Shown here one piece after another: positions 7,199 through 55,805 of a stretch of DNA of 64,000 nucleotides (positions are counted from its first letter, which is position 1; each line of letters opens with the position of its first letter). The notes below the pieces were generated by a model. That model had not been told where the DNA came from. It was given only the letters and a program-made list of their open reading frames with translations, and did no database searches. Made by a program: the position numbers and the translations under genes. Origin of the DNA: an uncultured virus (IMG/VR IMGVR_UViG_3300011445_000001). Taxonomy: Duplodnaviria > Heunggongvirae > Uroviricota > Caudoviricetes. The stretch lies in the IMG/VR virus record IMGVR_UViG_3300011445_000001; one strand, written 5' to 3'.

Positions 7199-8332
7199 CT
7201 AAGCCGGGGTCAGCTGCCCAACCGACTTCGCGGCCGTGGTGGCCGAGGAGGTGCGGAGCCCCTTGCTGTACTTGCGCGGGACGCGGTTCAGGTGCTTGAA
7301 CTCGGGGCCGGTGCCGATGAAGCCCACCTGTACGCCGGTCACTTCCTGTACCTTCTGCACGAACTCCCGGGTGGCCGGGGTCAACAGGTGGTAGCTGCCC
7401 CTACCGCGATTCTTGTAGTCGAGGTAGTCCAGCGCCACAAGGGCGATCTGTGTCGGACGGTTGATCAGGCACGCGCGCTTGGCCTGATCGTAATCGAATC
7501 GCCCAACCCGACGAACCTTCTTCGTCACCTGCGTCATTTCGGTGAGGTCACTGGGCGCCCCGCTTTCGGCCGTCACCTGAGCCCACGTCAGCTCATCCTT
7601 GATCGGCCCGGCCTGCTGGCCGGATACACGGATTGGGAAGGCGCGCATCACCAGAATCACATCGGTGACGAGGAACGGCGACAATCCCACCTCACTGACG
7701 AAGGCGGCGGCGCCAGTGTCGCGTGAGGTGGCGCAGGGATAGGATTCACCGTGGTAGAGCGACAACCCAAATCCCTGCGTGCCCTCGATCATGATGTTCT
7801 CACCGGCATCCACGGCGTCGTTCAGGATCTTGGCCGTGTCGGCCAGCATGGACGCCCACGGCAACCCATCGACCGTGATATCCTTGGCGAGCTTGACGTC
7901 CTTGCCGCGCATGATACGACGAGCCGAGGCTGCGCCCACGCCGCTCTGCGTAGACGAAATCTGGTCGAACATACCGGCGCCGGACTCGACCTCGATGTCC
8001 TGTCGTTCAATGATCATGGCGTTCCGGTCGACGAGGATGCGGTCGGCCGTGATCGCAAACCGCTCCATCTCCGCCTTCAAGATCTCCGGATTGATGAGCG
8101 ACCCGGCGGGAAGCACCAGCTTCACCGACTGACTGACCAACCCCGACACGGAAAGCTGTCTGGCCGACTGGATGGTACCATCGGCAGAGGTCAGAGAATG
8201 TCCGGCATTCGTACCACCGCAGCGCACCGCGTACGTACAGTTGTTCTCTACAACGATCTTGGCGGCAACGCGGCCCTTGCCTTCCGACCCGAACTGTCCG
8301 CCGCTGACAACAAACACTCTACCCTTCTTCAT
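7199..8332 (-). CDS. purZ: adenylosuccinate-synthetase-family protein, PurZ0-like (2-amino-dAMP succinate synthetase candidate)
   Basis: GGQFGSEGKG (Ser where PurA has catalytic Asp), GGTNAGH, EGTQGFGL, TSRD, FPIRV (Ile where PurA has Thr), RRVG, GTGP; AAGGAG SD. Family is certain; the PurZ0 subtype is inferred. Confidence 0.7.
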   Translation of the reverse strand: MKKGRVFVVSGGQFGSEGKGRVAAKIVVENNCTYAVRCGGTNAGHSLTSADGTIQSARQLSVSGLVSQSVKLVLPAGSLINPEILKAEMERFAITADRILVDRNAMIIERQDIEVESGAGMFDQISSTQSGVGAASARRIMRGKDVKLAKDITVDGLPWASMLADTAKILNDAVDAGENIMIEGTQGFGLSLYHGESYPCATSRDTGAAAFVSEVGLSPFLVTDVILVMRAFPIRVSGQQAGPIKDELTWAQVTAESGAPSDLTEMTQVTKKVRRVGRFDYDQAKRACLINRPTQIALVALDYLDYKNRGRGSYHLLTPATREFVQKVQEVTGVQVGFIGTGPEFKHLNRVPRKYSKGLRTSSATTAAKSVGQLTPA

Positions 8333-11334: not shown

Positions 11335-11377
11335 CTTGCCTCCACTTGGTTAGGGTCGCTTCTTGCGCTAAAAGACC

Positions 11378-11393: not shown

Positions 11394-11501
11394 ATTGGTT
11401 GGGGGTCCAAGGTCCACAAGAGGGGCTAAAGGGCCAAACGGGGGCGCAACCGATTGCGAATCTAGAGCAAGGGAGGGGTAAGGGCTATGGGTGTAGGGTG
11501 G

Positions 11502-11786: not shown

Positions 11787-11890
11787 GGCTAGTCTCCTGA
11801 TCCGTCCCACTGGTAGAAAATTGGCACCGGGGTCGCATTGCAGCGGTAGGCGCCCCAGTCGAAATCGTGTTGGTAGTAAAGAATCAGCAT

Positions 11891-12562: not shown

Positions 12563-12855
12563 TCGGACTCCTCTGCCTTTGGGGCCTTTTTGCTTCGCGG
12601 CATCTTCAGCTCTACCTGCCTACGAATCCACGACTTCGGGATTGTGACGTCGCCATCGAAATGCTCAGCGTTGACACTCGAAGCGATGGTGATGGCATCG
12701 GTGTTTTCGTGCAAGAGCCAGCCAACAGACCAGCACACAACCGGATTGGGGTCGATGCTCTCAAGGGCCTTCCACCCGGGCTCAGATTCGGATGCGGCGT
12801 CGAGCCACTCCACAAAGAGTAATTTGCGTTTCGTTTCCATATTAGGCGTACCCAT
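12559..12855 (-). CDS. conserved hypothetical phage protein
   Basis: VEWLDA...SVGWL...IP..WI pattern. Confidence 0.6.
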   Translation of the reverse strand: MGTPNMETKRKLLFVEWLDAASESEPGWKALESIDPNPVVCWSVGWLLHENTDAITIASSVNAEHFDGDVTIPKSWIRRQVELKMPRSKKAPKAEESE

Positions 12856-13300
12856 AGCGGAAGATTTCGACTAGAAAATCGCACGCCGGAGCAAGGTCGC
12901 CGAACACGCCCACCGAGTGCTTCAGCACCCAAGGGCTTCGCTCATCGGCCTTTCCGAAGCATACCACCGGCATATTCAAGACGTGGTTAGCGTAAAAGAT
13001 CTCCATGGCCGTTCCCCAACTCGGGCGGCCAATGTTCACCAGCAGGCCTTGGCACTTCTTAATAATCTCAAGGTCCTTCCAGACGATGTAATTCACGCCC
13101 GGGATGTCGTAGGTCAGCTGGGATTCGTGCTCGGGCTTCGTGCCACCGCTCAGGCGGTCGTATACCGCGCCCTCGAGGCAAAGGGGCGAAATGCCCTCGA
13201 CCCCGCTCGATGCAAAGATGGCCGTGGCCTCATCACGCCAGCCGCGCGATTCCGAAAAGCCAAGCCCCTGAATTCCGCCAGCAAGGTATACCCTCTTCAT
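12842..13300 (-). CDS. nucleoside 2-deoxyribosyltransferase / dNMP N-glycosidase family
   Basis: VYLAGG...WR...DLEII...SWGTAMEIFYA. Confidence 0.8.
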   Translation of the reverse strand: MKRVYLAGGIQGLGFSESRGWRDEATAIFASSGVEGISPLCLEGAVYDRLSGGTKPEHESQLTYDIPGVNYIVWKDLEIIKKCQGLLVNIGRPSWGTAMEIFYANHVLNMPVVCFGKADERSPWVLKHSVGVFGDLAPACDFLVEIFRYGYA

Positions 13301-13331
13301 GGGATGTGGTACACCGGCGGTTGGCGGGCGG

Positions 13332-14180
13332 TTAATCATGGTACAGCGTGCCAACTTCGTCGCCATTTGCCTTGCGCACCAGATACCCCATCTCGCGGAT
13401 TCGGTCGCATAACTCGTCGAAGTAGTACACGCCATCGATCAGGCCCATCTGATACCCAACGTCGCTTGTATAGGCCGCTCCGTTGGCAACGGATAGCGTG
13501 TATTGAACCACCGATCCCGTATCTGACGCGCCGAGGGTTAACAGGGCGCGGGTCCGAAGCCGATCAAACCGGTGCACCAGAATCTGATTTACAAACTGCA
13601 CGTATGTGGGGCGCACGGCGTTCGAAAGCGACATCCACTCCTCTATGGTCAAAGGAGTGTGCGGGCTTCCCTCCATCTTTCGTGCGCCGCTGGTGAAGAA
13701 GTAGTAACGCAAACCGATCATAGAGTCTTGAGAAGTGGCATCGATTCGCACGATATAAACCCCAATAGACCCCACCAAGCTTACGGGAGATGCGAAGATT
13801 GAGTCGGCCCCACAAGCAACCCAATACGCACCGGAGGCCAGCATGTACTCTGAGTAGACCCAAATGGGCTTGTTGTATTTGGCCTTAAGAACCTCAAGTC
13901 CATGGGCCAGAAGCTTCGTGTTCTGAACAGTTCCACCGGGGGAATCAAGCCACAGCACCAGAAGCTTGGTTTCAGACTTCATAACCACCGACTCGATCTT
14001 GTGCAGCCACTCGGGCGTGACCGAACCCTCAAACTTGACCACCACGGCCACATCTGGACTCAGCACCTCGCCGATCCGAACGAAGGGCTTTGTTGGTCCA
14101 CAGCCAGCACAACTAAGCACGGCGGCCATCAAAACCGACGCAACCGCCAACCCCAAAACCAGCCGTAGTAACTTTCTCAT
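13332..14180 (-). CDS. S49 (SppA-like) serine peptidase with lipoprotein signal
   Basis: LDSPGG, ASGAYW, VGSIGV, SGARK; N-terminal MRKLLRLVLGLAVASVLMAAVLS-C. Confidence 0.85.
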   Translation of the reverse strand: MRKLLRLVLGLAVASVLMAAVLSCAGCGPTKPFVRIGEVLSPDVAVVVKFEGSVTPEWLHKIESVVMKSETKLLVLWLDSPGGTVQNTKLLAHGLEVLKAKYNKPIWVYSEYMLASGAYWVACGADSIFASPVSLVGSIGVYIVRIDATSQDSMIGLRYYFFTSGARKMEGSPHTPLTIEEWMSLSNAVRPTYVQFVNQILVHRFDRLRTRALLTLGASDTGSVVQYTLSVANGAAYTSDVGYQMGLIDGVYYFDELCDRIREMGYLVRKANGDEVGTLYHD

Positions 14181-14208
14181 GGTTTCCTCTCTATTCTCGT
14201 TCTTGTCC

Positions 14209-14709
14209 TTAATGCGGTCGAATGGCCTGCACACCCAAATCATACCTGTAGGCATTTGGGCGAGGCGCCCTACCCACCACCCGAAGACCGGCGTGATGCA
14301 CCAACGCAATTAGGCGGTTCTGGTCATATGCGGCGTGGTGCAAATTGAGATCGTACGTCTGTGCACCAAAGAAGAGCGTACTGAACTCCTCAATATCGAT
14401 GCGCCCCGTAACCAAGTCCTCAGCCAACAGTCGCGAGTCGGGGCAGTAAATTCGCAACAAACCGCCCGGCTTTAAAATCAGGGCCCAGCGCTTTACCGCC
14501 TCAATCGCGTCAGGGTTAGTCATGTGCTCAATAACGTGGGAGGCCCGGATCTCGTCAACCTGCCCCAACATAGTATCTGGGAGATTGCGGATGTCGCACA
14601 CGATATGCACACCCGGCAGCGGTCTGGCATCAACATTTACAAAATCAACCAAGCGGGGCGAGCCAGATCCTCCATCAAATTCCTCATTGCCACCGAGATT
14701 TAGGCGCAT
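14209..14709 (-). CDS. class I SAM-dependent methyltransferase (type 11-like)
   Basis: LNLGG, VNVD, SHVIEH, LKPGG.LRIYCPD. Confidence 0.8.
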   Translation of the reverse strand: MRLNLGGNEEFDGGSGSPRLVDFVNVDARPLPGVHIVCDIRNLPDTMLGQVDEIRASHVIEHMTNPDAIEAVKRWALILKPGGLLRIYCPDSRLLAEDLVTGRIDIEEFSTLFFGAQTYDLNLHHAAYDQNRLIALVHHAGLRVVGRAPRPNAYRYDLGVQAIRPH

Positions 14710-15683
14710 AGACCCTCAAAGAATTGAGTATATCGCTCACCGACGACAGGGTAGTCGTGCACGTCAAGAACGAACTGCCGCGCGCGTTTGGATAACACGT
14801 CGTAATCCTGTGCCAAGGCCGCCTCTAGCGCAAGGCGCATACTCGGCTCATGTGGAGTGATATCAAAGATCGGGATGTTCGGCCAAAGTTTCTTGGCCTG
14901 CCAGCAAACCGAATTGAAAACAGGGACACCGAGCGCCATAGCTTCAATGGCCGACTGCCCATAGGAGATCATACGACAATCCGTGTGCTGCATAAAGAAA
15001 TGGCACCGGGCCAAGCGCCTTAAATGCTCTTCGTGGGGCACCCGGGTTTTACAAGTCACCGACCAACCCGGAAAGTAATCGCGCAGCACTCCCTCGAGGT
15101 GCGCGATATCGCTATTGGCCGTGGTACTCAAATGTGGATACACACCGATGGTCTGCTGATGACGCCGCTCAAACGGTAGGGGCTCCAATACCTTGGCGTC
15201 AATGGCGTGTGGGATGAGAAACGAGTCGATTTCTTCAAAGCCAAGAAACGCCGGGGTCTCTACAACCAGTCGGACGTTCGTATCGTGCAGGCGCCGGTTA
15301 ATTTCAACGTGGTGCTGCCGATACCATGTGCCCGTAAACGTGACGGACCGGTACTTCTTGGGGTAATGCGGGAACTCGCCCGCAAACGCCTTGGTGGGAG
15401 TCTTGGCCCACCCAACAAAGTCATGGTACTCGTCGTTCCAGCAGTGGATGAAATCGGCTTGCTCAAGGACCTCGCAAGCTTCGTCGTAGGCAGGACCATC
15501 ATTTACCGGAGGCATGTCACGCCAGCCGCACACCGAATCGAACACCAGATCGGCAGCAAAGTTAAGGGGGTGTTTAAAGCAGGTGATGTGGCGGGCCTGA
15601 ATGCGACCCACCCGATTTACGGCCTGCGCTGCCTTATAAGCATTGCCCGCGTGATCAGCTTGACACAAGAATGCAACCCTCAC
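14700..15683 (-). CDS. GT-B glycosyltransferase
   Basis: IPHAID, SYGQSAIEAMALGVPV, ARQFVLDVHD. Confidence 0.75.
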   Translation of the reverse strand: MRVAFLCQADHAGNAYKAAQAVNRVGRIQARHITCFKHPLNFAADLVFDSVCGWRDMPPVNDGPAYDEACEVLEQADFIHCWNDEYHDFVGWAKTPTKAFAGEFPHYPKKYRSVTFTGTWYRQHHVEINRRLHDTNVRLVVETPAFLGFEEIDSFLIPHAIDAKVLEPLPFERRHQQTIGVYPHLSTTANSDIAHLEGVLRDYFPGWSVTCKTRVPHEEHLRRLARCHFFMQHTDCRMISYGQSAIEAMALGVPVFNSVCWQAKKLWPNIPIFDITPHEPSMRLALEAALAQDYDVLSKRARQFVLDVHDYPVVGERYTQFFEGLCA

Positions 15684-16885
15684 GAGTTGACCGCCTCCAA
15701 CAACTTTTCACTTACGTAATCCACCTCGTCGGTGGTTAGGGACGCCGACGACGGCAAATAAAACCCACACTCCATTAACCACTCAGAACGCGGGTAACGC
15801 TGGCCCTTGAACCGGTCGTAGTGCACAGGCTGTAGATGCATGGGGACAAAGAAGTTTCGAGTTTCAATTCCGGCCATCGCCAAATCACGGCGCACCCTAT
15901 TCTTAATCCCACGGCTCACCAAAACACCAAACATCCAACACACCGGACGAGTGATCGATGGAAAGTTGTAGTAACGACCACAATCAACCGCGCGAACACC
16001 GCGCAGATTCTGCAGATAGCGCTCCTGCACCAGCCTGCGTCTGCCGATCAGATCGTCCCACCTCGCCACCTGTGCACGACCCAGCGCCGCCTGTAGAGCC
16101 GTTAGGCGATAATTGTACCCAAGAAACCGGTGGCAGAAATGGCGCTCAGGAGAAAACGCGTGGTTCATCAACGTCCGGACCCGCTCGGCCAACTCCGGCT
16201 CATTGGTGGTGATCATACCGCCCTCGCCCGTTGTAATCAGCTTATTGGCGTAGGAGGAGAATGCGCCGATATCTCCAATAGACCCGGTTACTTTGCCATC
16301 GTACTTGGCGCCATGGCTTTCGGCCACGTCCTCAATGACCCACAGACCGTGCTGCTTGGCCACGTGGTTGACGGCCAACATGTTGCAGGGCATGCCGTAG
16401 ATGTGGACAACAACAATAGCCCGGGTGCGATCCGTTACCGCTGCCTGCAGTTGGCTAACATCGAGGTTAAAGCTGGCGTCGGCGTCCAGCAGAACAGGAG
16501 TTGCTCCACAGTAGAGCACCGCATTAAGGGTAGCCACCATGGTGAAAGTGGGCAAGATCACCTCATCGCCCGGCCCAATACCAAGGGCGGCGATGGCTAG
16601 ATGCAGGGCCGCCGTTCCGCTAGTACAGGAAACGGCGTGCCGCACGCCGATCTTCTCTGCAAACTCGGTCTCGAACTGCCGGACGGCCGGGCCCAAGGAA
16701 GACACCCACCCCGAATCTATTACCCGCTGCATGTACCTCCGCTCCAAAGATCCAATGACCGGTTCGCACACCGAGATCTTAGAATGGGTCTTGGTGCAAA
16801 TGGGCGGCTCAGACTCAGGAAAGATCAAGCCCATCTCCGATTCAAAGGCCATCGAAGCGGGTTCGGGTATCGGCCTTTTCAGCAT
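15680..16885 (-). CDS. DegT/DnrJ/EryC1/StrS sugar aminotransferase (perosamine synthase-like)
   Basis: SGTAALHLA, EDVAESHG, FSSYANKLITTGEGG, GYNYRL, LPS. Confidence 0.92.
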   Translation of the reverse strand: MLKRPIPEPASMAFESEMGLIFPESEPPICTKTHSKISVCEPVIGSLERRYMQRVIDSGWVSSLGPAVRQFETEFAEKIGVRHAVSCTSGTAALHLAIAALGIGPGDEVILPTFTMVATLNAVLYCGATPVLLDADASFNLDVSQLQAAVTDRTRAIVVVHIYGMPCNMLAVNHVAKQHGLWVIEDVAESHGAKYDGKVTGSIGDIGAFSSYANKLITTGEGGMITTNEPELAERVRTLMNHAFSPERHFCHRFLGYNYRLTALQAALGRAQVARWDDLIGRRRLVQERYLQNLRGVRAVDCGRYYNFPSITRPVCWMFGVLVSRGIKNRVRRDLAMAGIETRNFFVPMHLQPVHYDRFKGQRYPRSEWLMECGFYLPSSASLTTDEVDYVSEKLLEAVNS

Positions 16886-17931
16886 GCAATGGTCTCCAGC
16901 TTAGTGAGTATCTTTTGGGCAACCACGGATGGTGCCAAGTTTGCCGCCACCCACGCGCTCCCAAGGGTGGCCTGCTCCACAGCCGATCCGTAGTCTTTGT
17001 ACACACCCAAAATGGCCTCTCCCATCGCGCGCCAATCGCCCGGCTCTACATAGATGGAATAGCCCCCCTCAATGGCCCGCTGGGCGGGGTAGTCGAAGAT
17101 GATGGAGGGCTTCCTGCAGTACAAGGCTTCAGCCGACGGGATGCACGGAGCCTCTGCCCACATCTGGGTAAAGATATGCAACTTGCATCGGCGCAGCAGG
17201 GAAGCCTTGACCCGATCAGACGCAAGGGGTATGAACTGAAAATCTGGAGTACCGGTGCCTGCCTCATGAAAACCAAGCTCACGCGCAAGATTATGTAGGG
17301 TCTGGTGGTGGTCATCCTGCGTAACCAGAACGATGCTCTTTTTCGCGTAGGCGCACGCGCGCAGCGCCAAATCAACCCTCTTAAAGTCGGTATGGCGGCT
17401 GACGATAAGAACGAAGTCCTCGGTTTGGGCCTCGGGCGCCGAGTCAAGAAGTTCGGTGTCCACAGGATAGAACACACAATCACAGTCGGTTCGACCGGTC
17501 AGGGCCTCGATCTGTGGGGGGATGGCCGGATTGATTCCGGTCAGGTGCCGGATTTTCGAGTAGGTGGCAATTAGCGGGGCTTGTGCGGCGAGAATGTCGG
17601 GTAAATTGCTGTCCGCAATGTCGAGAATCTGTAGCAACGCTGGAATCCCAAGACGATCTTGGTACTTCAGGACCTCGAGGGCGGCCCCATGCTGCGTCCC
17701 GAAAATCACATCGAAACGACCACATGACCGCATCCGGTACGAATGGTCAAAATCGGCCCACGTCGAGAATCTCACATTTAGACCACCGAACTCGTCCTCG
17801 AACGTCCGGCCACAGAGGGCATTGCGCCAAGATGGGTTGGTGAATACAACCTCATGCCCCATCTTCGCAAAATGGCGGGGATACTTAGCCAGCTGAACGA
17901 TATTGCCGCTAGATGCGACCAGAATTCTCAT
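16879..17931 (-). CDS. GT4-like glycosyltransferase
   Basis: YPVD, VSR..DFKR, EAPCIPSAEA (ExxxxxxxE). Confidence 0.75.
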   Translation of the reverse strand: MRILVASSGNIVQLAKYPRHFAKMGHEVVFTNPSWRNALCGRTFEDEFGGLNVRFSTWADFDHSYRMRSCGRFDVIFGTQHGAALEVLKYQDRLGIPALLQILDIADSNLPDILAAQAPLIATYSKIRHLTGINPAIPPQIEALTGRTDCDCVFYPVDTELLDSAPEAQTEDFVLIVSRHTDFKRVDLALRACAYAKKSIVLVTQDDHHQTLHNLARELGFHEAGTGTPDFQFIPLASDRVKASLLRRCKLHIFTQMWAEAPCIPSAEALYCRKPSIIFDYPAQRAIEGGYSIYVEPGDWRAMGEAILGVYKDYGSAVEQATLGSAWVAANLAPSVVAQKILTKLETIAC

Positions 17932-18898
17932 ATCTCTGTCCTTTGGTGGTTAGCATTCTCTCCATGAAACTCCAGCACTCCCCTGCTCGATGTACATCCA
18001 AGTGAGACCGGTAGACGGCGTCTTGTCCAGCCTTAGCGATTATACCCCGCAGATCCGGCTCTTCGTATAGGAACCGGCGGGCGATGTCGATCAGGCCGTG
18101 CGCCCCATGAAACATAACCAGATGCTTACCGTCCCTAAATGGGATATTGGCGTGTCGAATGCCCGACATCAGATAGAACGACCCCGATCCAAGCACCTGC
18201 CACAACCGGTCGGAGGTTGCGGCGTGCTGATTGGGCAATCGTGGCAACCCAACCACTATCCGACATCGCGCATAGAAATTCCCAACCTCGGCACCAAGCA
18301 AAAGCCCATCAGCTGCGGGGTTGTGAATTACCCAGTTAGAGGAAATGCGAGGAAACGCCTCCATCAAGATGCGACGCCGGTAGTCATTAACATAACCCAA
18401 AAAGCCGATATCATAGATCTTGTCTGTGGTGGTGGGCTCAAGGCAGCGGTTAAAAGACGGCGGCAACCAGTAGGCCCCAAGGGGGTAGGCCCGCGCTCGC
18501 GCGTCTGCTATACTTTTGTGCTCCTGCAACAGCATAGCAGCACTGCGTTGAAGCTCGTTCAAGATTGCGTCGTGAGACGGATGAATTACCTCGTCGGAGT
18601 CGTGCACAACCACGTTGGTGAACCCATAGCGACGCAAGTGGCGCACCAGATCGAAATCCGACCGAGACGCAACCACAATCCAGTCCGGCTGCGACTTCTG
18701 AATATCGCGCAAAATCTCGGGGAATTGGGCTTGGTCTACGCGAAAGGACGTGGCTCGGCGGGTGGAATTGGAAAGGGACAGGTGGACATCGCGGCCCTGC
18801 TGCTTATAGAGTTCAAAGAATCGCTGCGTACCAGAGGCGCCGCATCCGGGCTCCCATGGACGACAAACAAAATGGAGTCTCACGCTGGTTTCTGACAA
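17909..18898 (-). CDS. CgeB/Glyco_trans_1_2-like glycosyltransferase
   Basis: YDIGFLG...RR, SDRLWQVLGSG, IAKAGQ..V...H....RA. Confidence 0.75.
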   Translation of the reverse strand: MSETSVRLHFVCRPWEPGCGASGTQRFFELYKQQGRDVHLSLSNSTRRATSFRVDQAQFPEILRDIQKSQPDWIVVASRSDFDLVRHLRRYGFTNVVVHDSDEVIHPSHDAILNELQRSAAMLLQEHKSIADARARAYPLGAYWLPPSFNRCLEPTTTDKIYDIGFLGYVNDYRRRILMEAFPRISSNWVIHNPAADGLLLGAEVGNFYARCRIVVGLPRLPNQHAATSDRLWQVLGSGSFYLMSGIRHANIPFRDGKHLVMFHGAHGLIDIARRFLYEEPDLRGIIAKAGQDAVYRSHLDVHRAGECWSFMERMLTTKGQRYENSGRI

Positions 18899-19371
18899 TA
18901 AACCACGAGATTGGTGCGGGCGTCATGGCGCGAGTAACAGGCCTGCGGGCCTTCGTGGATATTACTAAACCCGGCACTAAACAAGAGATCATGCAAATAC
19001 ACCCAGTCAAACATCAACGTTTGTCTGAGGCCGGGCTCGTTCACACCGTAAATACCCTGAATTACGGTTTCGGCCCCAATCCGGCCCGACAAATACTCGC
19101 GCAACAAGGGCTTAGAATCGGGAACCTCAATGTTGAGGGTCCCGCCGGGACGCAACACCCGGAACCACGAGGCCAGCGTCGTTGGCACCAAACTGCGATC
19201 AGGGAGGCACTGCAAAGCGTGGGCGGAATAAATGGCGTCCACGCTTTCGGTCTGGATAAGACGGAGGTAGCAAATATCACAAGCAATCTCCGCCGCATCA
19301 CCCAGCTCGATGTCGACCCCAACAAAGCCGTCTACGCGCTGGTTGCCACACCCAACATTAAGCCTGTACAT
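18880..19371 (-). CDS. class I SAM-dependent methyltransferase (type 11-like)
   Basis: LNVGCG, GVD, WFRVLRPGG.L.IEVPD; paralog of 14209-14709. Confidence 0.82.
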   Translation of the reverse strand: MYRLNVGCGNQRVDGFVGVDIELGDAAEIACDICYLRLIQTESVDAIYSAHALQCLPDRSLVPTTLASWFRVLRPGGTLNIEVPDSKPLLREYLSGRIGAETVIQGIYGVNEPGLRQTLMFDWVYLHDLLFSAGFSNIHEGPQACYSRHDARTNLVVYCQKPA

Positions 19372-20377
19372 GCACCAAAACCCCAGCCTTCATAAGGTAG
19401 CCGTTCAACTCATCGAAGTAGGCCTTCTTGTCAATATAGGGCAAGAAGGACGCGTTGATATTGCGCCTCAAAAATCCAACGGTACGCGCCTCGCCAAGCT
19501 CTCCCATCAACAGACATAACTCGTCGGTCAGAGTTGTATCGAACATCGTCGGGTCGTCCGAATGCACGGTTACGTTAAGGCCCCGGCGCTCCATCTCCAA
19601 GATGGGGTGGTTGGCGAACCGATCTACCAAGCCTACGCGGATGTTGGACATTGGGCAGACCTCAATCGGTATCTGCGTGATAGCCAGAAAGTCCATTAGC
19701 TGCGGGTCCTTCACGGCCGTGATACCGTGCCCAATCCGCTCCACGTTGAGATTGCGCACTACATCCCAGATCACCTGTGTGTCTTTCCATTCACCGGCGT
19801 GGGCCACAACCCGAAGGCCCGAATCGGCCGCCGTTTGGAAGATACCGGCAAATCGCTTCGAATCACCGCGCTCAGACCCACCCAAACCAAGGCCAATGAT
19901 GTACTCGCTTTTCTTGCGGATCGTGGCCTTCAGTGCATCTAGAGCCACCCCAACATCCCGGTCGCGGGACACGTCGGGGATGCAGCGCAGCTTGATATTG
20001 TACTTGATCTCGGCCTGTCGACACGCCCGGGCAATCACAGATAGGGCCTCTTCCGGGTTTACCTCGTGCAGGATGTGCAGCGCCAACGACACAAAGAACT
20101 CACAGTAGCGAATGTTCTCATCGGCTCGAGATTTAGCGAAGCGGTCCACCAGCAGATAAAAATCCTCGGGCTTCCGGATGGCGGTGGTGCAGGTATGGTA
20201 AACCTCAAGGAAATGAACGAGGTTCTTGTACTGAAAATACCGCTCCCCCTCCGCAACGGTAGTGAACGGAAGGTTAACGCCGTTCTCGCGCGCAAGCTGA
20301 AGGTAGGTCTCGGGGGTAGTGGCGCCCTCGAGATGGCAATGCAGCTCAACCTTAGGAGCTTCGCTAAGCCAGCTCAT
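19358..20377 (-). CDS. add: adenosine/adenine deaminase family
   Basis: PKVELHCHLEG, AHAGE, ERIGHG, EVCPMSN, SDDP; all metal and catalytic motifs present. Confidence 0.92.
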   Translation of the reverse strand: MSWLSEAPKVELHCHLEGATTPETYLQLARENGVNLPFTTVAEGERYFQYKNLVHFLEVYHTCTTAIRKPEDFYLLVDRFAKSRADENIRYCEFFVSLALHILHEVNPEEALSVIARACRQAEIKYNIKLRCIPDVSRDRDVGVALDALKATIRKKSEYIIGLGLGGSERGDSKRFAGIFQTAADSGLRVVAHAGEWKDTQVIWDVVRNLNVERIGHGITAVKDPQLMDFLAITQIPIEVCPMSNIRVGLVDRFANHPILEMERRGLNVTVHSDDPTMFDTTLTDELCLLMGELGEARTVGFLRRNINASFLPYIDKKAYFDELNGYLMKAGVLVHVQA

Positions 20378-21300
20378 GAGTGTGCTTCCATCAAGGCCCA
20401 GTACTGGTCGATGCGCGTGCGCAAGGTGTGGTTGGCCTCAATTTCCCGCTGACCATTTAGCGCCACCAGTTCCCGTTCGACTTCGTGCTTCAAGTACTCT
20501 CGAATCTTGAAGACCATATCGCCATAACTGCCGTAGGTAATTAAATGCCGATCGGGCATGAAGAGACGTTCGATCTTCGGAATCCCGAAGGTCAAGTACA
20601 TAGCCCCGCACCCCATGGCCTTGTAAATTCGGTCGGACGTCGTAAAGTCGCCATATTCAAAGTTGCCCCGCTTGATGTCAATGGCAATCTTGCTTTGGCG
20701 GTAAAGATTGGCCATCTCGGTGCCGAATGCCGGAGTCATAGTGCCATCCGCAAGGCGATTAGACCCACGAATACAGCACTTAAACCCCTCCCTTCGCAGG
20801 AGGCGCAACCAAGTCTGTCGCGTATCGTCATGATCCGAATCGCCAAAGAAGGCCACGTCGAAGATCTCGTGATCGGGACTTAGTCGGGAGATTGTAGGGG
20901 CGTAATAATCACTGTCATAGTACTGCGGCACCCACTCCAAGCACCGCGCCAGACCCTTGTACCGATTCACCACATCTAGGGTGGAGTTAACTACGACGTG
21001 CGGGACCCCAACCGTTTCGCGCCAAATGGAGTCACGCGTGGCATCTACGGCGTCGGCGTCCCAAACCATAAGCTTGTAGGTGGAAGCAAGGCGTCTCAAC
21101 ACAGGAAGACCGAGACTGCGGATGCCGGTCACAAACACCCAGTCCGGCTTGTTGGCCTCTACCGTATTCCAGAGGCGGTGATCAGGCAGTCCGGCGTAAC
21201 TAACAAACCCGACGTGCTTCTGGCGAGCAAGCGCCGCGTGGTAAATCAAGAGCCCATTCTGCCAAGGCGTCGACCCATTTCCGAGGATTACCACCTTCAT
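20374..21300 (-). CDS. CgeB/Glyco_trans_1_2-like glycosyltransferase
   Basis: FDVAFFG, YRQSKIAI, SDRIYKAMGCG, NHTLRTR. Confidence 0.78.
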   Translation of the reverse strand: MKVVILGNGSTPWQNGLLIYHAALARQKHVGFVSYAGLPDHRLWNTVEANKPDWVFVTGIRSLGLPVLRRLASTYKLMVWDADAVDATRDSIWRETVGVPHVVVNSTLDVVNRYKGLARCLEWVPQYYDSDYYAPTISRLSPDHEIFDVAFFGDSDHDDTRQTWLRLLRREGFKCCIRGSNRLADGTMTPAFGTEMANLYRQSKIAIDIKRGNFEYGDFTTSDRIYKAMGCGAMYLTFGIPKIERLFMPDRHLITYGSYGDMVFKIREYLKHEVERELVALNGQREIEANHTLRTRIDQYWALMEAHS

Positions 21301-22340
21301 GCGGCCACTGCCTCAAAAATGTCTTTCATGATGGGGCCAAGGGTCGTCCACGAGTGACATCGCTCAATGTGCGCGCGGGCGCGGGACGAGCGTTCGGGAA
21401 GGTTATTACAGGCCTTGGCGGCAAGCATCTTCATCATCAAGCTTCCGGTGTTTGGCTGGTAGACCAATCCGTTTTGAACTCGGCCGATAGGGCCGCTGGC
21501 GGGAGCCTCCACGAGCCAATCGACGTCGGGAATAACCTCGTTCAGTGGCGGTATGTTGGAACCGATAACGGGAATGCCACACGACATCGCCTCACGGAAG
21601 GGAAGACCAAGCCCCTCGCGCCGAGATGGAGACAGGTAAACGTCGCCCTCTTTATAGAGGTCAACGGCCTGAGGAAAGTTACCAAGGCGAAAGTCTACAT
21701 TGCGCAGCAGGCCCGGGTCTACTGGGATTTGCGAGTGCACAATCAAACGGCACCCAGACTGATCAATTCGGCGCCAAGCCTGAAACACAAAATCCCACCC
21801 CTTGCGCATGCCATCGCCGCCGTGGCCTATGTTGTGCAGGAAAGTTAGAGGGCGGTCGACCCCGCGCGGGGTGAAAGCGAAGTACTCAGTGTCAATCGGC
21901 CACGGCAAGTAGACCGACGGCAATCCCTCTTGTGTCAGGGTATTGTGGCAGTACTGCGACGGGGAAACGAACAAATCAATTAAGCCGATGTACCCCGACT
22001 TGCGAATCCACGGCGTACCAACGCTGTCGATCATCGGAAACCACACAATCTTGATGCCAGCGGCCTTTAGCTGCGGAAGGAAGTGCCAGTTGTACGGGTA
22101 CTCGAATATGACCGCGATATCCGGCTTAGAAGCAAGGAATCTACGAAAGTTGGCGTCGAGCGAGGCGTCCCACTGGTCGGCGACGATATAATCACCCCGC
22201 ACAAACTCGAGATCGGTGCCCTTCTCGTGATGTGGGATCACAAAGTGCATGTAGACGTCGACATTTCGGTGAAACTGCTTCGCCATCTGTCCGAGGCCGG
22301 AGTTGTTGATGGTGGCGATCAGGCCGATCTTAGGGCTCAT
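21297..22340 (-). CDS. GT4 glycosyltransferase
   Basis: RKG, PSRREGLGLPFREAMSCGIPVI. Confidence 0.85.
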   Translation of the reverse strand: MSPKIGLIATINNSGLGQMAKQFHRNVDVYMHFVIPHHEKGTDLEFVRGDYIVADQWDASLDANFRRFLASKPDIAVIFEYPYNWHFLPQLKAAGIKIVWFPMIDSVGTPWIRKSGYIGLIDLFVSPSQYCHNTLTQEGLPSVYLPWPIDTEYFAFTPRGVDRPLTFLHNIGHGGDGMRKGWDFVFQAWRRIDQSGCRLIVHSQIPVDPGLLRNVDFRLGNFPQAVDLYKEGDVYLSPSRREGLGLPFREAMSCGIPVIGSNIPPLNEVIPDVDWLVEAPASGPIGRVQNGLVYQPNTGSLMMKMLAAKACNNLPERSSRARAHIERCHSWTTLGPIMKDIFEAVAA

Positions 22341-22447
22341 GGGTCTGAGCAGTCCCGTTTAAATCCGCAGTTGTCGCAGACGAGCTTGCACGCCCGAGTC
22401 GACATGGGAGATCCGCAAAGATCGCACGTTGGTGTTTCGTCTGCCAT
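22337..22447 (-). CDS. small Zn-ribbon protein
   Basis: MADETPTCDLCG...CKLVCDNCGFKRDCSDP. Confidence 0.6.
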   Translation of the reverse strand: MADETPTCDLCGSPMSTRACKLVCDNCGFKRDCSDP

Positions 22448-22451
22448 AAGC

Positions 22452-23222
22452 CTAGACGCCCACCCTCGGCTTAATCTCTTGGACGTTCTTGGTATCGCGG
22501 CCCCATCCACCACACTCAGTACAGGAGAACGCATGGTACTTGGTCGTTTTGTTCCTGTACCAGCCCTCCCACTTCAGCACGCCCGGACCACCGGCCCCAC
22601 ACTTAGGGCAAGTGTCGCCGGGGCGGTCCATCGCCATGTTCGGGTGGCTGACCATCCATGGACGGATCTTGAGGTACAACTGCTCGAGAATCGTGACGTC
22701 CCTCTTGTTATATCGAAGCATCTCACGCCACGCCGATGGGTCTCCCTTCATGCAGCGCGTCCAGCACGAGAAACCGCCGTGACCCATCTTTCTTGGAATG
22801 CCGAAGTAGGAGCACAGATCGTCGAGGCTGTGGCTGGGCAACCTGACGTACTTCTTGGCTTCGATCTTCGTGTCAATCACCCTGTATGGTGAAGGTGGGG
22901 TTAGGCCATGCGCAATAAACCGGGCGTTAACGACCTTGACGTCGAAATCCCGGCCGTTGTGGGCAACGACGGCGTCGGCTTGATTGAAGAACGACCGAAT
23001 GTCGGCCACAATCGCCTTGTCGTTCATCGCCCCGGCTTTGTATCCCTTGTAGTTTGGCCAGCCCCTCGTGATGTGGGAGCCACCAAGCCACTTAGCGGAA
23101 AAGCTTAAGATCCGGGTGTGAGCCAGCACCTCAATAAGGTTGGTTTGCCATTTGGGCCCCCACGTGTAAGCCACCAATGGCGTGGTCTCAATATCGAAGA
23201 ACAGAATCTTGGGTTGGCTCAT
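22452..23222 (-). CDS. RNase H-like (DnaQ/YprB-type) 3'-5' exonuclease with C-terminal Zn ribbon
   Basis: FFDIET, AHNGRDFD, YNKRDV, CPKC...CTEC. Confidence 0.85.
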   Translation of the reverse strand: MSQPKILFFDIETTPLVAYTWGPKWQTNLIEVLAHTRILSFSAKWLGGSHITRGWPNYKGYKAGAMNDKAIVADIRSFFNQADAVVAHNGRDFDVKVVNARFIAHGLTPPSPYRVIDTKIEAKKYVRLPSHSLDDLCSYFGIPRKMGHGGFSCWTRCMKGDPSAWREMLRYNKRDVTILEQLYLKIRPWMVSHPNMAMDRPGDTCPKCGAGGPGVLKWEGWYRNKTTKYHAFSCTECGGWGRDTKNVQEIKPRVGV

Positions 23223-23238
23223 CGTGCCTACTTTTACA

Positions 23239-23499
23239 CTATTGGGGTTGGGTGGGTAGGGGGCCCAAAACTCTCTGTTTCCACTCGGGCCACGACTTAA
23301 CCATCTTAGAGCAGTATTCTAGATGGTGTTGGAAGTGAAGAGCATCTCGCTCTTCCCAAGACCCGTCGGTCATAAGAGGCGCCAGTCTGTGTGCTAGAGT
23401 CACGGCCTCGTCTTCGGCCAAGTAAACCTGTCCATCCCAAGAATGACGAAAGGACCGCAACCACGCAATTAGTTCAGAAAAGTTCTTGTCGTTCAACAT
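23239..23499 (-). CDS. hypothetical protein
   Basis: Packed ORF. Confidence 0.45.
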   Translation of the reverse strand: MLNDKNFSELIAWLRSFRHSWDGQVYLAEDEAVTLAHRLAPLMTDGSWEERDALHFQHHLEYCSKMVKSWPEWKQRVLGPLPTQPQ

Positions 23500-23732
23500 T
23501 ACTCAGGTCGTCCCCTCTGAATCCACTCATACAGCAGCTGTTCCATCTGATCTGCACCAAATTTCCGGTAAAACTCAGAGACATTGCCCAGCTCGGCCAT
23601 CCCGGAGGTGCTGGCATCCGCGTTGGCTTGCTGCATCAGGTGCCAGTTCACCATACGGCGTATGTCCTTGTGGACGTGCACAACATAGTTAACTTTCAGG
23701 CGCATGGGGTCACTCGTACAACGACGGATCAA
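23499..23732 (-). CDS. hypothetical protein
   Basis: Packed ORF. Confidence 0.4.
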   Translation of the reverse strand: MIRRCTSDPMRLKVNYVVHVHKDIRRMVNWHLMQQANADASTSGMAELGNVSEFYRKFGADQMEQLLYEWIQRGRPE

Positions 23733-23895
23733 ATTGAGACTTCGGTCCGGTAGAGGAATGGTGCTGCATTTTCCGCTCCGTCACCATAGTGGTGGTAACG
23801 TCTCGGATGAATCCAGAAGACTTGATCTCCTCGAGCAGGGGTCGGAGCTTTTCAACCACCCGATCGGCAATCTTGTCGATATCAGAGTCGTCCAT
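23710..23895 (-). CDS. hypothetical protein
   Basis: MDDSDIDKIAD..., GGAG upstream. Confidence 0.45.
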   Translation of the reverse strand: MDDSDIDKIADRVVEKLRPLLEEIKSSGFIRDVTTTMVTERKMQHHSSTGPKSQFDPSLYE

Positions 23896-23896
23896 G

Positions 23897-24490
23897 CTAC
23901 TCGGGGTCTCCTCCACTGATGGTGATGGGCGGCGGATTTTCAATGTTGCGAAGGATGGTGATCAAGCTGTGGGCCGCCTTATGATCACGCTCGAACACCT
24001 CACTAATGTCCTTGTAGTAGTTAAGCTTAAACTCCCGGACGGACGATACACCCATGTGCTTCAATCGAGCAACAGCAAGGCCAGAACCGTGCAAGCCTTC
24101 GGGGTCGTTGTCAGGCACAAGAACTACCCGTTCGTAGAATCTCGAGACCACACGAAGCTGGGCACCAAGCAACGTGTTGTTGATGTAGGCGGCAGCATGA
24201 AGCCCGGCCGTAAGTAGCCAGCCGACGTCAAACACGCCTTCAACAAGGAAGAGAACACGGTCGGACTCAACTCCGCGCCAGAGAAAGTAGCCATGCGATG
24301 ATTTCTGGATCTTGATGTTGTAGGATTTGTGGGTTATGCTGCGACCAATCACCCCAACCACGCGGTCGGTATAATCGCGCAAAGGGAAGTAGACTACATC
24401 GCCCTCAGAGTAGACGCCAAGGTGCTCGTAATCGGCAGGGGACCAGCCTCGACGCTCGATGTAATCTTTGGCGGCCTTGCTTAGGCTCAT
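23897..24490 (-). CDS. DnaG-type primase catalytic/TOPRIM core lacking zinc-binding domain
   Basis: YIERRG, YFPLRD...VVGVIGR, LVEGVFD, VPDNDPEG, KDISE. Confidence 0.8.
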   Translation of the reverse strand: MSLSKAAKDYIERRGWSPADYEHLGVYSEGDVVYFPLRDYTDRVVGVIGRSITHKSYNIKIQKSSHGYFLWRGVESDRVLFLVEGVFDVGWLLTAGLHAAAYINNTLLGAQLRVVSRFYERVVLVPDNDPEGLHGSGLAVARLKHMGVSSVREFKLNYYKDISEVFERDHKAAHSLITILRNIENPPPITISGGDPE

Positions 24491-24651
24491 ATCGCTAGCT
24501 TTTTGAACCAACCACGGAGGGTCTTTATGCTAACGCGAAATACGATCGTGATGTCAATGTTGGTCTTACCTTCCGATCGCAATTCGCGGATCAAGGCGCG
24601 GAGGGCGGCGGGATTTGCTTCAATGCGGTTTTCACGACAAACACGCCGCAT
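24487..24651 (-). CDS. small HTH protein
   Basis: EGKTNIDITIVFRVSIKTLRGW helix-turn-helix pattern. Confidence 0.55.
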   Translation of the reverse strand: MRRVCRENRIEANPAALRALIRELRSEGKTNIDITIVFRVSIKTLRGWFKKLAI

Positions 24652-24664
24652 GGCGTCCGTTAGT

Positions 24665-24862
24665 TCAATCAAGGGACCACCCAGCCCAGTTCTTCGCCAT
24701 GTTCGCCGCCACGTCGTTGCATACACGACGGGCGAATCCCTTGCACATAGCACCAGAACAAAGACGAGTTCGACATTCTTGTGGGCGGTTGCGATCAGCA
24801 ATTGCCACCAGATCTTCAAACTCTTTACCACAGGCCGGGCATTTGTAAGTATAGAGCGGCAT
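24665..24862 (-). CDS. FmdB-family zinc ribbon protein
   Basis: MPLYTYKCPACGKEFE. Confidence 0.75.
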   Translation of the reverse strand: MPLYTYKCPACGKEFEDLVAIADRNRPQECRTRLCSGAMCKGFARRVCNDVAANMAKNWAGWSLD

Positions 24863-24863
24863 T

Positions 24864-24882
24864 GTGCGTGTGGTAGCGCGAC
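24864..24882 (-). repeat. 19-bp dispersed repeat, copy 1
   Basis: GTCGCGCTACCACACGCAC (minus strand), identical to 56560-56578. Confidence 0.75.
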
Positions 24883-24885
24883 AAA

Positions 24886-25014
24886 CTAGCCTGTGGTGTA
24901 AAGGCGCCTTGTGGATTCGACCAGAAGCTGGTGCTGAATGAGAACCAGCTGCGCGTGCGAGAGGGTAGGCACCACCGCGAGGAAGTCCGCTACCGCTTTA
25001 TTGGTGTCAGCCAT
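24886..25014 (-). CDS. small hypothetical protein (42 aa, below ORF-track cutoff)
   Basis: MADTNKAVADF...YTTG with AGGAG SD. Confidence 0.5.
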   Translation of the reverse strand: MADTNKAVADFLAVVPTLSHAQLVLIQHQLLVESTRRLYTTG

Positions 25015-25065
25015 TTTTATCTCCTGTGCTATTGCTCTCAAGTGTCTGAGCAGGTTTGTGTGCAT

Positions 25066-25473
25066 CTACTTCTTACCACCAAACTTTTCCATCATCGATG
25101 GTGCAACCTTCTCAACCGACCGCCCGATCACGTAGCCGCCGAGACCAAGCTGAAGGAGCGTCCACGCCTCTGGAGCGAGGCGATTAGACAACCAACCGAA
25201 GGAGTCGCACACAACGAGAACCAAAAACGTAAGCATCGTGACGGGGCGCCAATTGCGCTGCATCCACGACGCGCCGGTGGCCTCGGACTTGATAACCGAG
25301 GTTTGGAGGTCCAGAACCTTGGCCTCATACTCAAGCATCTTAGAGGCAATATCGTTCTGGAGTTTCTGCATCTCATTGACGAGCTTGCCCTTTTCCTCGG
25401 CCGAAGTGTGTATGCTGCCAATAAGCTCCGTAACCGGCTTAATCGCGTCCCCAAGAAATGCAAAGAGCCCCAT
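25066..25473 (-). CDS. 3TM holin (GTA-type)
   Basis: IKSEA...SWMQRNWRP...LGLGGYVIGRSVEK. Confidence 0.8.
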   Translation of the reverse strand: MGLFAFLGDAIKPVTELIGSIHTSAEEKGKLVNEMQKLQNDIASKMLEYEAKVLDLQTSVIKSEATGASWMQRNWRPVTMLTFLVLVVCDSFGWLSNRLAPEAWTLLQLGLGGYVIGRSVEKVAPSMMEKFGGKK

Positions 25474-25492
25474 AGACTACCCCCACTAAAGG

Positions 25493-25509
25493 TGTAGCCA
25501 ATTTTACAC
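25493..25509 (-). promoter_or_regulatory. GTGTA-type late promoter motif
   Basis: GTGTAAAA-TTGGC-TACA upstream of the holin. Confidence 0.6.
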
Positions 25510-26204
25510 TAGGCAATAGGGTCTTTAGGCTTCCAATCGGCGTAGCTGGTCGCCCGGTCGTCTTGCTCGGGGTGGGTGGACTCAAACTCCAGAAGCACGG
25601 CTGCATTCCACATCAGCTGGCCGAGGTGATGACATCTAGGAAGCTCCTCGTCGCGCCTCGACCCGGCGAGCCACTTCAACCAATGGCGCCAGAGAGGGCC
25701 GATTACCTTGGACCACGGCATGCCCTTCTCCCAATTACGGGCCGGGTACTTCTTAACCCCCTCGGTGAACACCAATCCAAGCTCTCGGATAGCGCTCTTC
25801 GGGATGAGGTCAATGCGGAGATCGGGGTTCTCGGTCATAACCTCGGCGATCATAGACAGAAACTCGGGGTGGATGAGGTCGGTGCGCAGCTTACCTTCGG
25901 TATATCGAAGGCCGACCGGCGATGCTTCCTGCTGGGCGTCGGTCACAACCACGACGTCATACGCCCAATCCCGAAAGTTCCGGACCTCGATCCGATACTC
26001 AACCTTGATGGTCTGCTGGTGGCAGAAATAGAGATTCGGCGGAGCATCTGCGGCAGCCAACAGCGCCGACGAGCCATCAGCAAACTGAACGATGAAATGC
26101 TCTGGTGTGGGGGGCGTATCGAACAGCGTGTCGAGGGTAGCGGGGTGCACCAGCACCGCGTGCCTGATGATACCAAATCGCTTTTGAGGGAGGGTTGCGT
26201 CCAT
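25509..26204 (-). CDS. dATP/dGTP diphosphohydrolase (DUF5664) with N-terminal extension
   Basis: GKLRTDLI, GVKKYPARNWEKGMPWS, RH, D.E....HHL...WNA; start uncertain. Confidence 0.8.
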   Translation of the reverse strand: MDATLPQKRFGIIRHAVLVHPATLDTLFDTPPTPEHFIVQFADGSSALLAAADAPPNLYFCHQQTIKVEYRIEVRNFRDWAYDVVVVTDAQQEASPVGLRYTEGKLRTDLIHPEFLSMIAEVMTENPDLRIDLIPKSAIRELGLVFTEGVKKYPARNWEKGMPWSKVIGPLWRHWLKWLAGSRRDEELPRCHHLGQLMWNAAVLLEFESTHPEQDDRATSYADWKPKDPIA

Positions 26205-26217
26205 AGGTCCTTGTACC

Positions 26218-26484
26218 CTAACGGGCGCCGGATGGAAAGGGAGGGCAGACCGATCCGTGGTCCTGCGCCTCCGCGTGTTCACGGAGGGCCTTGCGGGCGC
26301 AGTCGATGCCAAACTCGAACCACCCCTGTGAGAACCCGGGCGGGATGTTCTCTGCGTCCGTGAACGTCCCGGTTCGTTGGTCTAGCTCGAGCGACGCGAC
26401 CCGCTGACCGGTTAGGTCAACCCCACATCTCTCACAGGCGGAGTGGGCGTGGGCCGCCGGGCCGATGAATTTGGGCTTGGTCAT
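26218..26484 (-). CDS. hypothetical Zn-binding protein
   Basis: CERC...SQGWFEFGIDCA. Confidence 0.55.
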   Translation of the reverse strand: MTKPKFIGPAAHAHSACERCGVDLTGQRVASLELDQRTGTFTDAENIPPGFSQGWFEFGIDCARKALREHAEAQDHGSVCPPFPSGAR

Positions 26485-53975: not shown

Positions 53976-54791
53976 TTATCGGCCACTGTAGTCGTACTGC
54001 GATCCTTCGTCCGAACCGGGAAAGCTGTCGGGGTGGGTCGGCACTTCCGCGAGATTGCCGACGTTTTGCCAGCCGGGTTCATAGGCGAATAGGCACTCGT
54101 TACATGCGGTCTCCTGCTTGTGGGCGACCGCGATGGTATCTCCGAACTGAACTACCGGCTTCCAGTTGGGGGGTGCGATGAACTCTGAGGCGGTGACGTG
54201 GTTGGCCTTGGTGAGATGTTCGGCAAAGGCCCAGTACGCTTGGCTGTCGAACTTGCCCTTGGGTCCGGGTGCTGAACGACCGGCATAGGGCGGATCGAGG
54301 TAGAAAGTGGCGCCCGTATAGTTCTCGTAGGTGAGGTAGTCGACACAGACGAGGGTGATTTGGTCACGGTGGGCCTTGAGGATGTCTACCTTCTTGGTCC
54401 ACATGCGCTTGAGCGAGGCGCTCATGTCGCCCTTCTTGCTACGAGCATAACCACCGAACCACGAAGCCGCGAAAGCCATTCCGAAGCCGACGTAGGCCGT
54501 CATTGGGTCGTTCGGGTCGCGTATGGCCTTGTATTGCTTGAAATCGGCCTCAGATACGGTGTCAGGAGGAACCCACCCGTCGAGTGACGCCATCCATGTC
54601 GTCATCAACGCCGGGTGGAGGTCGGATAGAACAATGCGGACGTCCTTGGGCAGTTGGGGGATCACCTTCATGGCGGCTCCCAAGGCGCCGCAGAACGGCT
54701 CAACGTAGAGCTTGCATTCGGGGTCCCAGTTGGCAATGATATAGTCGGCGATTCGGCCGCCCTGTCGCATCTTTCCGCCCAAATATCGCAT
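53976..54791 (-). CDS. D12-class (Dam-like) DNA N6-adenine methyltransferase
   Basis: MRYLGGK, YVEPFCG, LSD, YLDPPY, SE. Confidence 0.85.
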   Translation of the reverse strand: MRYLGGKMRQGGRIADYIIANWDPECKLYVEPFCGALGAAMKVIPQLPKDVRIVLSDLHPALMTTWMASLDGWVPPDTVSEADFKQYKAIRDPNDPMTAYVGFGMAFAASWFGGYARSKKGDMSASLKRMWTKKVDILKAHRDQITLVCVDYLTYENYTGATFYLDPPYAGRSAPGPKGKFDSQAYWAFAEHLTKANHVTASEFIAPPNWKPVVQFGDTIAVAHKQETACNECLFAYEPGWQNVGNLAEVPTHPDSFPGSDEGSQYDYSGR

Positions 54792-55436: not shown

Positions 55437-55805
55437 TTAGCGGTTATCTCCATCACCATGAAGGGTGTCCTTCTTGGCGCGTTCGTCGAGCTTCTTGATG
55501 TTGGCGGCGGCGACGTCCGATAGCTTGGCGCCTATTTCGTCGCAAGTGGCCGAGAGATACCACAAGGCGTCTCCCAACTCCTTGAGAATGGCCTTGCGGT
55601 TCTCCTCGGTAATCTCCCCGCCTTGGTCGCGCGCGATCTTCTTGACCTTACCAGCAACCTCGCCAGCCTCGTTGGTTAGACCGAGGACCGTATACTCAAG
55701 AGCCCCAAGCGGATCGGCATGCTTACAGTGGCAGTAGTCGCAAAACCGATGGCGCGGGTAGATCTTGAACCGGCGGGCTTTCTGCTGGTAGTCGTTGAAA
55801 TTCAC
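55437..55805 (-). CDS. MazG-like NTP pyrophosphohydrolase
   Basis: MNFNDYQ, LGLTNEAGEV, KELGDALWY, NIKKL..R, GDGDNR. Confidence 0.88.
   Translation of the reverse strand: MNFNDYQQKARRFKIYPRHRFCDYCHCKHADPLGALEYTVLGLTNEAGEVAGKVKKIARDQGGEITEENRKAILKELGDALWYLSATCDEIGAKLSDVAAANIKKLDERAKKDTLHGDGDNR

Follow-up and report, generated by a model that had tools for sequence, protein, structure and literature searches.

A phage adenosine deaminase-family gene set in a sugar operon as a possible adenine sink for a PurZ0-like pathway

To our knowledge, the exclusion of adenine in Z-DNA phages is the work of hydrolases and transferases only (DatZ, MazZ, DutZ, DmtZ and DUF5664). One of the closest described systems is the PurZ0 pathway of Arthrobacter and Gordonia phages, the published account of which names PurZ0, DutZ, DmtZ and DUF5664, reports the conversion of dATP to dAMP by a DUF5664 homolog, and counts 481 PurA-family proteins in 53,887 NCBI viruses (PMC12884076). 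The word "deaminase" is absent from the main text of this paper and from that of bioRxiv 2025.10.22.683976, although the supplements of either could list such a domain. In the open-access literature, to which the search was confined, no report was found that brings together a phage adenosine deaminase (ADA) and PurZ, 2-aminoadenine or a glycosyltransferase. The ADA fold itself acts on adenine compounds in phage-host conflict. Examples are Cad1, which is fused to a CARF domain, and KomA, the dAMP deaminase of the Kongming operon, which is accompanied by the HAM1-like KomB and the SIR2 protein KomC.

The DNA considered here (the window) is a stretch of 64,000 nucleotides from an uncultured groundwater virus, IMG/VR record IMGVR_UViG_3300011445_000001. 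It represents most of a siphovirus-like genome, with genes for the terminase, tail tube, tape measure, holin and lysin. The same DNA lies within a contig of 71,134 bp, and the window leaves approximately 7 kb of the genome outside. The genes that relate to a Z-DNA pathway are the following:

7199..8329, minus strand: PurZ0-like synthetase of the PurA/PurZ family, in whose GSEGKG motif Ser replaces the catalytic Asp (profile and sequence comparison)
12842..13309, minus strand: candidate dNMP N-glycosidase of the NDT superfamily (PF05014 at E=2e-5, short of the cut-off)
25509..26312, minus strand: DUF5664 dATP/dGTP diphosphohydrolase (PF18909, E=4e-26; match to Bennie gp48, E=3e-19)
53976..54791, minus strand: D12-class adenine DNA methyltransferase, apparently intact, with a DPPY motif (Pfam)
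55437..55805, minus strand: MazG-like pyrophosphatase (Pfam)

The Ser-type synthetase, DUF5664 and the NDT-like gene are shared with the described PurZ0 pathway (PMC12884076). The window differs in that its genes lie scattered, that a dUTPase-like DutZ was not seen among them, that the NDT-like protein lacks the Asp of DmtZ, and that an ADA is present. The synthetase carries Ser15 together with the loop VTKKVRRV of phiVC8 PurZ rather than the VTGRRRRV of archaeal PurA, and its GSEGKG motif is invariant in nine of nine close relatives. Its score is nevertheless higher against archaeal PurA (198 bits) than against PurZ0 (109 bits), and "PurZ0-like" is a label that we infer for it. More than 100 PurA-family proteins (P0279-P0389) are about 50% identical to the synthetase, and some of them are named from Acidobacteriota MAGs; all of the best 120 of 4888 PurA-family matches have GSEGKG or GGEGKG in place of the catalytic Asp. 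The NDT-like protein shares a Tyr and the SWGxxxE motif with the N-terminal domain of Bennie gp50, with Gln for Asp and no phmmer match, and gave no sequence match in the PDB. It is flanked by a peptide deformylase gene (11891-12562) and by an S49 peptidase gene (13332-14309) whose product has a signal-peptide-like N-terminus.

From this gene content, the phage may replace adenine by 2-aminoadenine in its DNA. No HD/YfbR match indicative of DatZ was found among the window ORFs scanned, and the roughly 7 kb outside might hold one; this part of the genome is also the probable place of the polymerase, no domain of which occurs in the window. The DatZ family was likewise found in none of 14 viral records tested, among them all seven in which ADA is accompanied by a PF00709 synthetase, five of these seven being less than 90% complete. 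The D12 methyltransferase is awkward for a fully adenine-free genome. The window also encodes a dCMP deaminase and, at 58673-59983, a sigma-70-like protein whose regions 2 and 4 are separated by a long insertion rich in cysteine. The avoidance of restriction sites (GCCGGC and CCGCGG absent, CCWGG 4 times against 107 expected) was considered as a sign of Z and rejected as non-diagnostic, since CCWGG is avoided in phiVC8 and SH-Ab 15497 too, and GATC in phiVC8. This pattern points to host restriction or C5-methylation systems that have those sites.

The ADA gene lies 11 kb from purZ, outside any Z cluster, within a run of nine genes devoted mainly to sugar transfer:

21297..22340, minus strand: GT4 glycosyltransferase that opens the module (Pfam)
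20374..21300, minus strand: GT-B glycosyltransferase (PF13524), overlapping the ADA start by 4 nt, ATGA (Pfam; model pLDDT 95.6)
19358..20377, minus strand: ADA-family (cog1816-type) metal-dependent deaminase, 339 aa, ATG start
18880..19371, minus strand: class I methyltransferase (PF08241), overlapping the ADA end by 14 nt (Pfam)
17909..18898, minus strand: second PF13524 glycosyltransferase (Pfam)
16879..17931, minus strand: GT4 glycosyltransferase (Pfam)
15680..16885, minus strand: DegT/DnrJ sugar aminotransferase (Pfam, E=7e-109)
14700..15683, minus strand: conserved module gene with no significant Pfam match, putatively GT-like, 55% identical in the related phage L182
14209..14709, minus strand: second class I methyltransferase, closing the module (weak Pfam match, E=6e-4; 65% identical in L182)

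The earlier note had described a full ADA-family gene that overlaps its two neighbors, and the reading frame, profiles, model and catalytic residues agree with this description. Residues 8-324 match PF00962 (E=2e-71, 241 bits against a cut-off of 27), and the score against TIGR01430 (248.5 bits) exceeds the curated cut-off of 216.55. The AlphaFold model has a pLDDT of 92.8, and its best solved fold matches are 3rys and 3ou8 (TM 0.86-0.90). The HxH, HxxE, H and DD catalytic residues of the amidohydrolase barrel are all present, and H13, H15, H193, E196, H217, D274 and D275 are invariant in all 14 sequences of the ADA clade discussed below. The gene is thus intact and retains its metal and catalytic residues; its predicted activity is the deamination of adenosine or deoxyadenosine. 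An assembly chimera or artefact at this locus is ruled out, because the ADA DNA is covered, with no differences listed, in all four public runs examined (groundwater and freshwater sediment, two of them possibly the source), and one contig spans positions 7000-26500 unbroken. Scans for promoters and terminators gave chance levels only.

The claim that such a gene is unusual both in phages and in sugar clusters was also borne out. Only nine of 50,697 INPHARED records match, and the two that were opened proved to be host chromosome. The relatives of the ADA were sought among 5.8 billion proteins, from which 8000 candidates were scored and the best 120 of 909 matches were listed. Among these 120, 13 relatives are 46-82% identical to the window ADA, and the identity then drops to 43% or below. 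A profile-free search of 50% representatives returned one member of this group, the ESM Atlas gave PF00962 clusters and nothing beyond, and scans of viral, metagenome and genome contigs yielded, among the matches listed, this phage or matches of at most 43% alone. The window ADA and its 13 relatives fall together in a single clade, which has an SH-aLRT support of 99 and a stem 0.52 changes per site long in a quick tree of 72 rows, and none of the 13, among the matches listed, comes from nr or UniRef. Sequence comparison thus identifies a new clade of a known family, and a distinct, old and conserved lineage. It nests within the "IPD" group of bacterial cog1816 proteins (Chloroflexota, Bacteroidota, Acidobacteriota, Actinomycetota), which holds its nearest relatives, at up to 43% identity, and with which it shares the IPD motif, also found in the actinobacterial members, and E17; the Pa0148-type and E. 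coli-type enzymes lie apart from it. Two AT-rich viral contigs, one of them a giant-virus bin, carry divergent ADAs of the IPD group (L004 and L005) on long branches near the clade. A recent and isolated capture from a host, which the earlier note had set up as the contrary case, is excluded by the 14-member clade, by the low identity of the nearest cellular-type matches, and by a codon usage within the range of the genome (GC3 0.70, codon score 0.73).

The earlier note had further proposed that the deaminase is functionally tied to glycosylation, and this proposal did not survive the survey of related loci. The eight other genes of the module recur in the phage L182 with their order kept and with identities of 47-67%, and there the stop of the glycosyltransferase gene overlaps the start of the methyltransferase gene directly, with no ADA between them. 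The S49-NDT pair follows the sugar operon there as well. PF00962 was found in none of the seven other viral records that carry the flanking glycosyltransferase, three of which are at least 90% complete. In the opposite direction, an IMG/VR motif scan gave 54 stretches, reduced to 44 viral ADA loci by the removal of nine without a tblastn ADA match and of this phage; in none of the 44 was a homolog of the window glycosyltransferase, DegT or methyltransferase genes found in up to 10 kb of DNA on each side. Among 162 loci of more distant, nearly all bacterial, ADA relatives, one has a DegT homolog and one a GT4 homolog. A Logan contig of 3540 bp is listed, among the best matches, both for the closest ADA relative (82%) and for the closest glycosyltransferase relative (77%), and the arrangement is therefore probably kept in one near relative. 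For the other 12 of the 13 clade members no listed contig is shared with any of the 22 glycosyltransferase matches, a proxy that covers the listed rows and the longest contig of each cluster.

The simplest reading of these comparisons would be the insertion of ADA at a gene boundary of an older, pre-existing glycosylation operon, with which it may share only transcription; its position there is probably incidental. The listed fold matches of the glycosyltransferase at 20374..21300 are GT4-like sugar and small-molecule transferases of 9-14% identity, with no DNA glucosyltransferase among them. Since, in addition, head genes precede the operon in L182, the operon more likely glycosylates virion proteins. 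In three siphoviruses related by their head and tail genes (L187, L188 from G008, and L190 from G021), a PF13524 glycosyltransferase precedes a compact PolA-DUF5664-NDT-PurZ0-like cluster at about 9800-17000 of each locus, and its distance to the Z genes is 4.5-5 kb in each of these phages. Elsewhere in the window, an exact repeat of 36 bp (28271-28306 and 57071-57106) is common to two GT2-like genes, at 27793-28485 and at 56584-57300, whose identity is about 42%; this suggests duplication or gene conversion.

The other half of the neighborhood survey, the association with purZ, was upheld at the level of the family. The search covered 36 ADA-bearing viral records drawn from the 44 loci, and the controls were picked by neutral DNA words: 17 were all of the non-self matches, and 43 came from 46 of 80 listed, at least 13 kb long and with giant-virus bins left out. 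PF00709 occurs in seven of the 36 records and in none of the 60 controls (0/17 and 0/43; Fisher p=7e-4), the controls being unmatched for lifestyle and kinship. In records longer than 90 kb the counts are five of six and none of seven (p=0.005). Six of the seven partner synthetases have Ser at the catalytic position (GSTGKG in G053, the genome of locus L251), and one, from G044 (L232), keeps Asp (GDTGKG). Many of the 29 records without PF00709 are fragments, Kongming-type proviruses or host DNA; six of them group with Kongming-type proviral genes (neighbors checked for two) and six with E. coli Add, and PF00709 is present in both of the non-proviral ADA records with a completeness of 90% or more. 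The ADAs associated with purZ belong to at least three lineages split by starred branches, namely the IPD type of the window, the Pa0148 type of L251, and a third group (L237, L247 and L260), while the placement of three further rows is less sure. The link to purZ is best described as suggestive and convergent.

Within the window clade itself, no listed contig is shared between the 13 relatives and the best 120 of 4888 PurZ-like matches, a proxy based on the longest contigs of the clusters, so that, within the clade, the purZ link was observed for this genome. PurZ0-like relatives without ADA exist (G008 and G021, both 100% complete, G020 at 86% and G004 at 60%), and the annotations of four reference PurZ/PurZ0 phages include no ADA; the gene is therefore an optional accessory in PurZ0-like phages. 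One of these relatives, the myovirus-like G004 (L169, L191, L192), shares the synthetase (73%), DnaB, an SNF2 helicase and a primase zinc finger with the window phage and has none of the tested structural genes of the window siphovirus, which indicates module exchange. The viral ADA loci show other arrangements as well. An IMPDH/GMPR-family gene stands directly upstream of a Pa0148-type adenine deaminase gene in the purZ record L251 (8332-10435) and in L217 (1084-3169). A group of large phages carries a short ADA (L214, L220, L222, L228, L232), which adjoins a DnaE-type polymerase gene in the first three, and Kongming-like ADA-HAM1-SIR2 cassettes occur in proviruses (L209 and L211, with the near-identical L216, L238, L252 and L259).

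The clues to the substrate come from single positions of the ADA fold. E17 of the window ADA is acidic at the position that presumably binds the 5'-OH, which in the proviral KomA-type proteins is occupied by Asn (HVHLNG). S97, invariant in all 14 clade sequences, is aligned with Asp100 of Pa0148, a residue of the F-F-D-P-Q-x-H motif which we take to act in base binding. D135 is aligned, in a weak local alignment, with Asp172 of Plasmodium vivax ADA, which presumably permits the turnover of MTA. Together, the three residues suggest a nucleoside substrate, possibly 5'-substituted, rather than a free base or a nucleotide. The adenine deaminases Pa0148 and AAur1117 (PDB 3ou8 and 3rys) are the best solved sequence matches (160-167 bits) and share the HxHxEG, HAGE and DD motifs. 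They differ from the window ADA in having Asp100 for Ser97 and an IxxFLR strand for CIPDVSR, and occupy a separate, fully supported branch, and the assignment to the Pa0148 type was rejected on these grounds. E. coli Add, mammalian ADA and the Plasmodium ADA/MTA deaminases have the same catalytic set, with Ser97 as in RYSP/RFSP, and are 24-28% identical to the window ADA; their 5'-binding Asp is Glu in the phage protein. The identities of KomA, Cad1 and RADAR RdrB were likewise rejected: KomB and KomC homologs, present in L209 and L211, are absent near the gene, the protein has no CARF domain and matches only the ADA part of CARF_ADA, and, at 339 aa, it scores 21.8 bits against 800 for RdrB and falls short of the 800-aa RADAR architecture. 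The suggestion of the earlier note that the enzyme depletes dA stands in part, since the removal of dA is a plausible role and the association with purZ holds at family level, while the substrate is predicted from residues and context.

The reading that we favor, tentatively and with our confidence just short of an even balance, is that ADA is an optional sink converting (d)adenosine to (d)inosine in the service of a PurZ0-like, Z-DNA pathway. The gene, its fold, its catalytic residues, the insertion and the family-level co-occurrence are observed here. In such a pathway, DUF5664 would turn dATP into dAMP, from which the NDT-like protein or host nucleotidases might release adenine or dA. Phosphorylases are known to interconvert base and nucleoside, and a host enzyme of this kind would do so here. 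The ADA step, from dA or A to dI or I, would then make the loss of adenine irreversible, and the ring could be led back, by way of hypoxanthine, IMP and GMP, to dGMP, on which PurZ acts. The joint presence of the Ser15 synthetase, DUF5664, MazG and the NDT-like protein in one window counts in favor of this role; the habit of large phages of collecting nucleotide genes counts against it, as does the naming of some of the 50% synthetase relatives as bacterial proteins.

General purine salvage, in which an ordinary ADA is carried as cargo raising the supply of inosine and guanine nucleotides with no tie to Z-DNA, and the PurA-like co-occurrence reflects purine-rich toolkits, is unlikely though well short of remote. 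The IMPDH/GMPR family is found in three of 18 phage-type ADA records searched against none of seven non-ADA relatives, the Asp-type partner of G044 fits this reading, and the nearest bacterial ADA relatives have no functional neighborhood in common, with homologs of PurZ, NDT or DUF5664 in none of the 162 loci; the Ser-type residue of the other partners and of the window synthetase, and the absence of PF00709 from the controls, argue the other way. We also regard as quite unlikely the view that the enzyme deaminates 5'-substituted adenosines (SAH, MTA, 5'-dA) and frees the two operon methyltransferases from inhibition by their products. The 14-nt overlap with one of them, the alignment of D135 and the shared 3540-bp contig are consistent with it, and a clade member, P0002, is named by JGI as an aminodeoxyfutalosine deaminase, a name that also occurs in the bacterial IPD group. 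Aminodeoxyfutalosine deaminase is weakly active on MTA and SAH. However, the same methyltransferases occur without ADA in L182, G018 and G019, and a listed contig joins ADA to a glycosyltransferase match for only one clade member. Co-occurrence with the futalosine pathway was itself not seen: no mqn family was found among the window ORFs scanned, and the MqnE cut-off was reached in none of seven genomes from or near the ADA sister group (G120-G126, one just under it, these MAGs being possibly incomplete), compared with seven of 17 others.

A sanitising or counter-defence function, which would remove N6-methylated adenine nucleosides from degraded DNA or drain the adenine-derived precursors of immune signals, appears improbable. 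The phage has its D12 methyltransferase, and in L228/L232 a gene of this kind immediately precedes ADA; E. coli Add is described as supporting growth on N6-methylated purines (PMC13296781), and phages as depleting dAMP against Kongming (bioRxiv 2024.12.20.629578). Yet the window ADA has Glu in place of the KomA-type Asn, neither a HAM1/SIR2 partner nor a CARF domain accompanies it, and the inosine nucleotides produced would be fuel for Kongming, not an obstacle to it. The link drawn in the earlier note, by which a purine nucleotide made or trimmed by ADA is then glycosylated by the neighboring transferases, is very improbable in our judgment. Translational coupling at both ends of ADA, the constant distance of the flanking-glycosyltransferase homolog from the Z genes in three other phages, and a GDP-mannose dehydratase gene 2.3 kb from ADA in another purZ phage (G051, with a PF13524 gene elsewhere) would fit, but the operon is complete without ADA, and its place after the terminase and portal genes of L182 is a better fit to virion glycosylation. 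As the operon is found elsewhere without ADA, adenine disposal is likelier than a part in glycosylation. A combined scheme for DatZ-free Z-DNA, in which the clade deaminase removes adenine nucleosides and spares those of 2-aminoadenine, while the PF13524 transferase glycosylates the product to give glycosylated Z-DNA, is similarly far-fetched; stripped of the DNA glycosylation, it is the reading favored above.

If the proposed sink is real, purZ phages would have recruited unrelated deaminases of the ADA family more than once, and deamination would join the known means of excluding adenine, with the ring recycled into dGMP. The making of Z-DNA would also profit from an enzyme able to distinguish dA from dZ.
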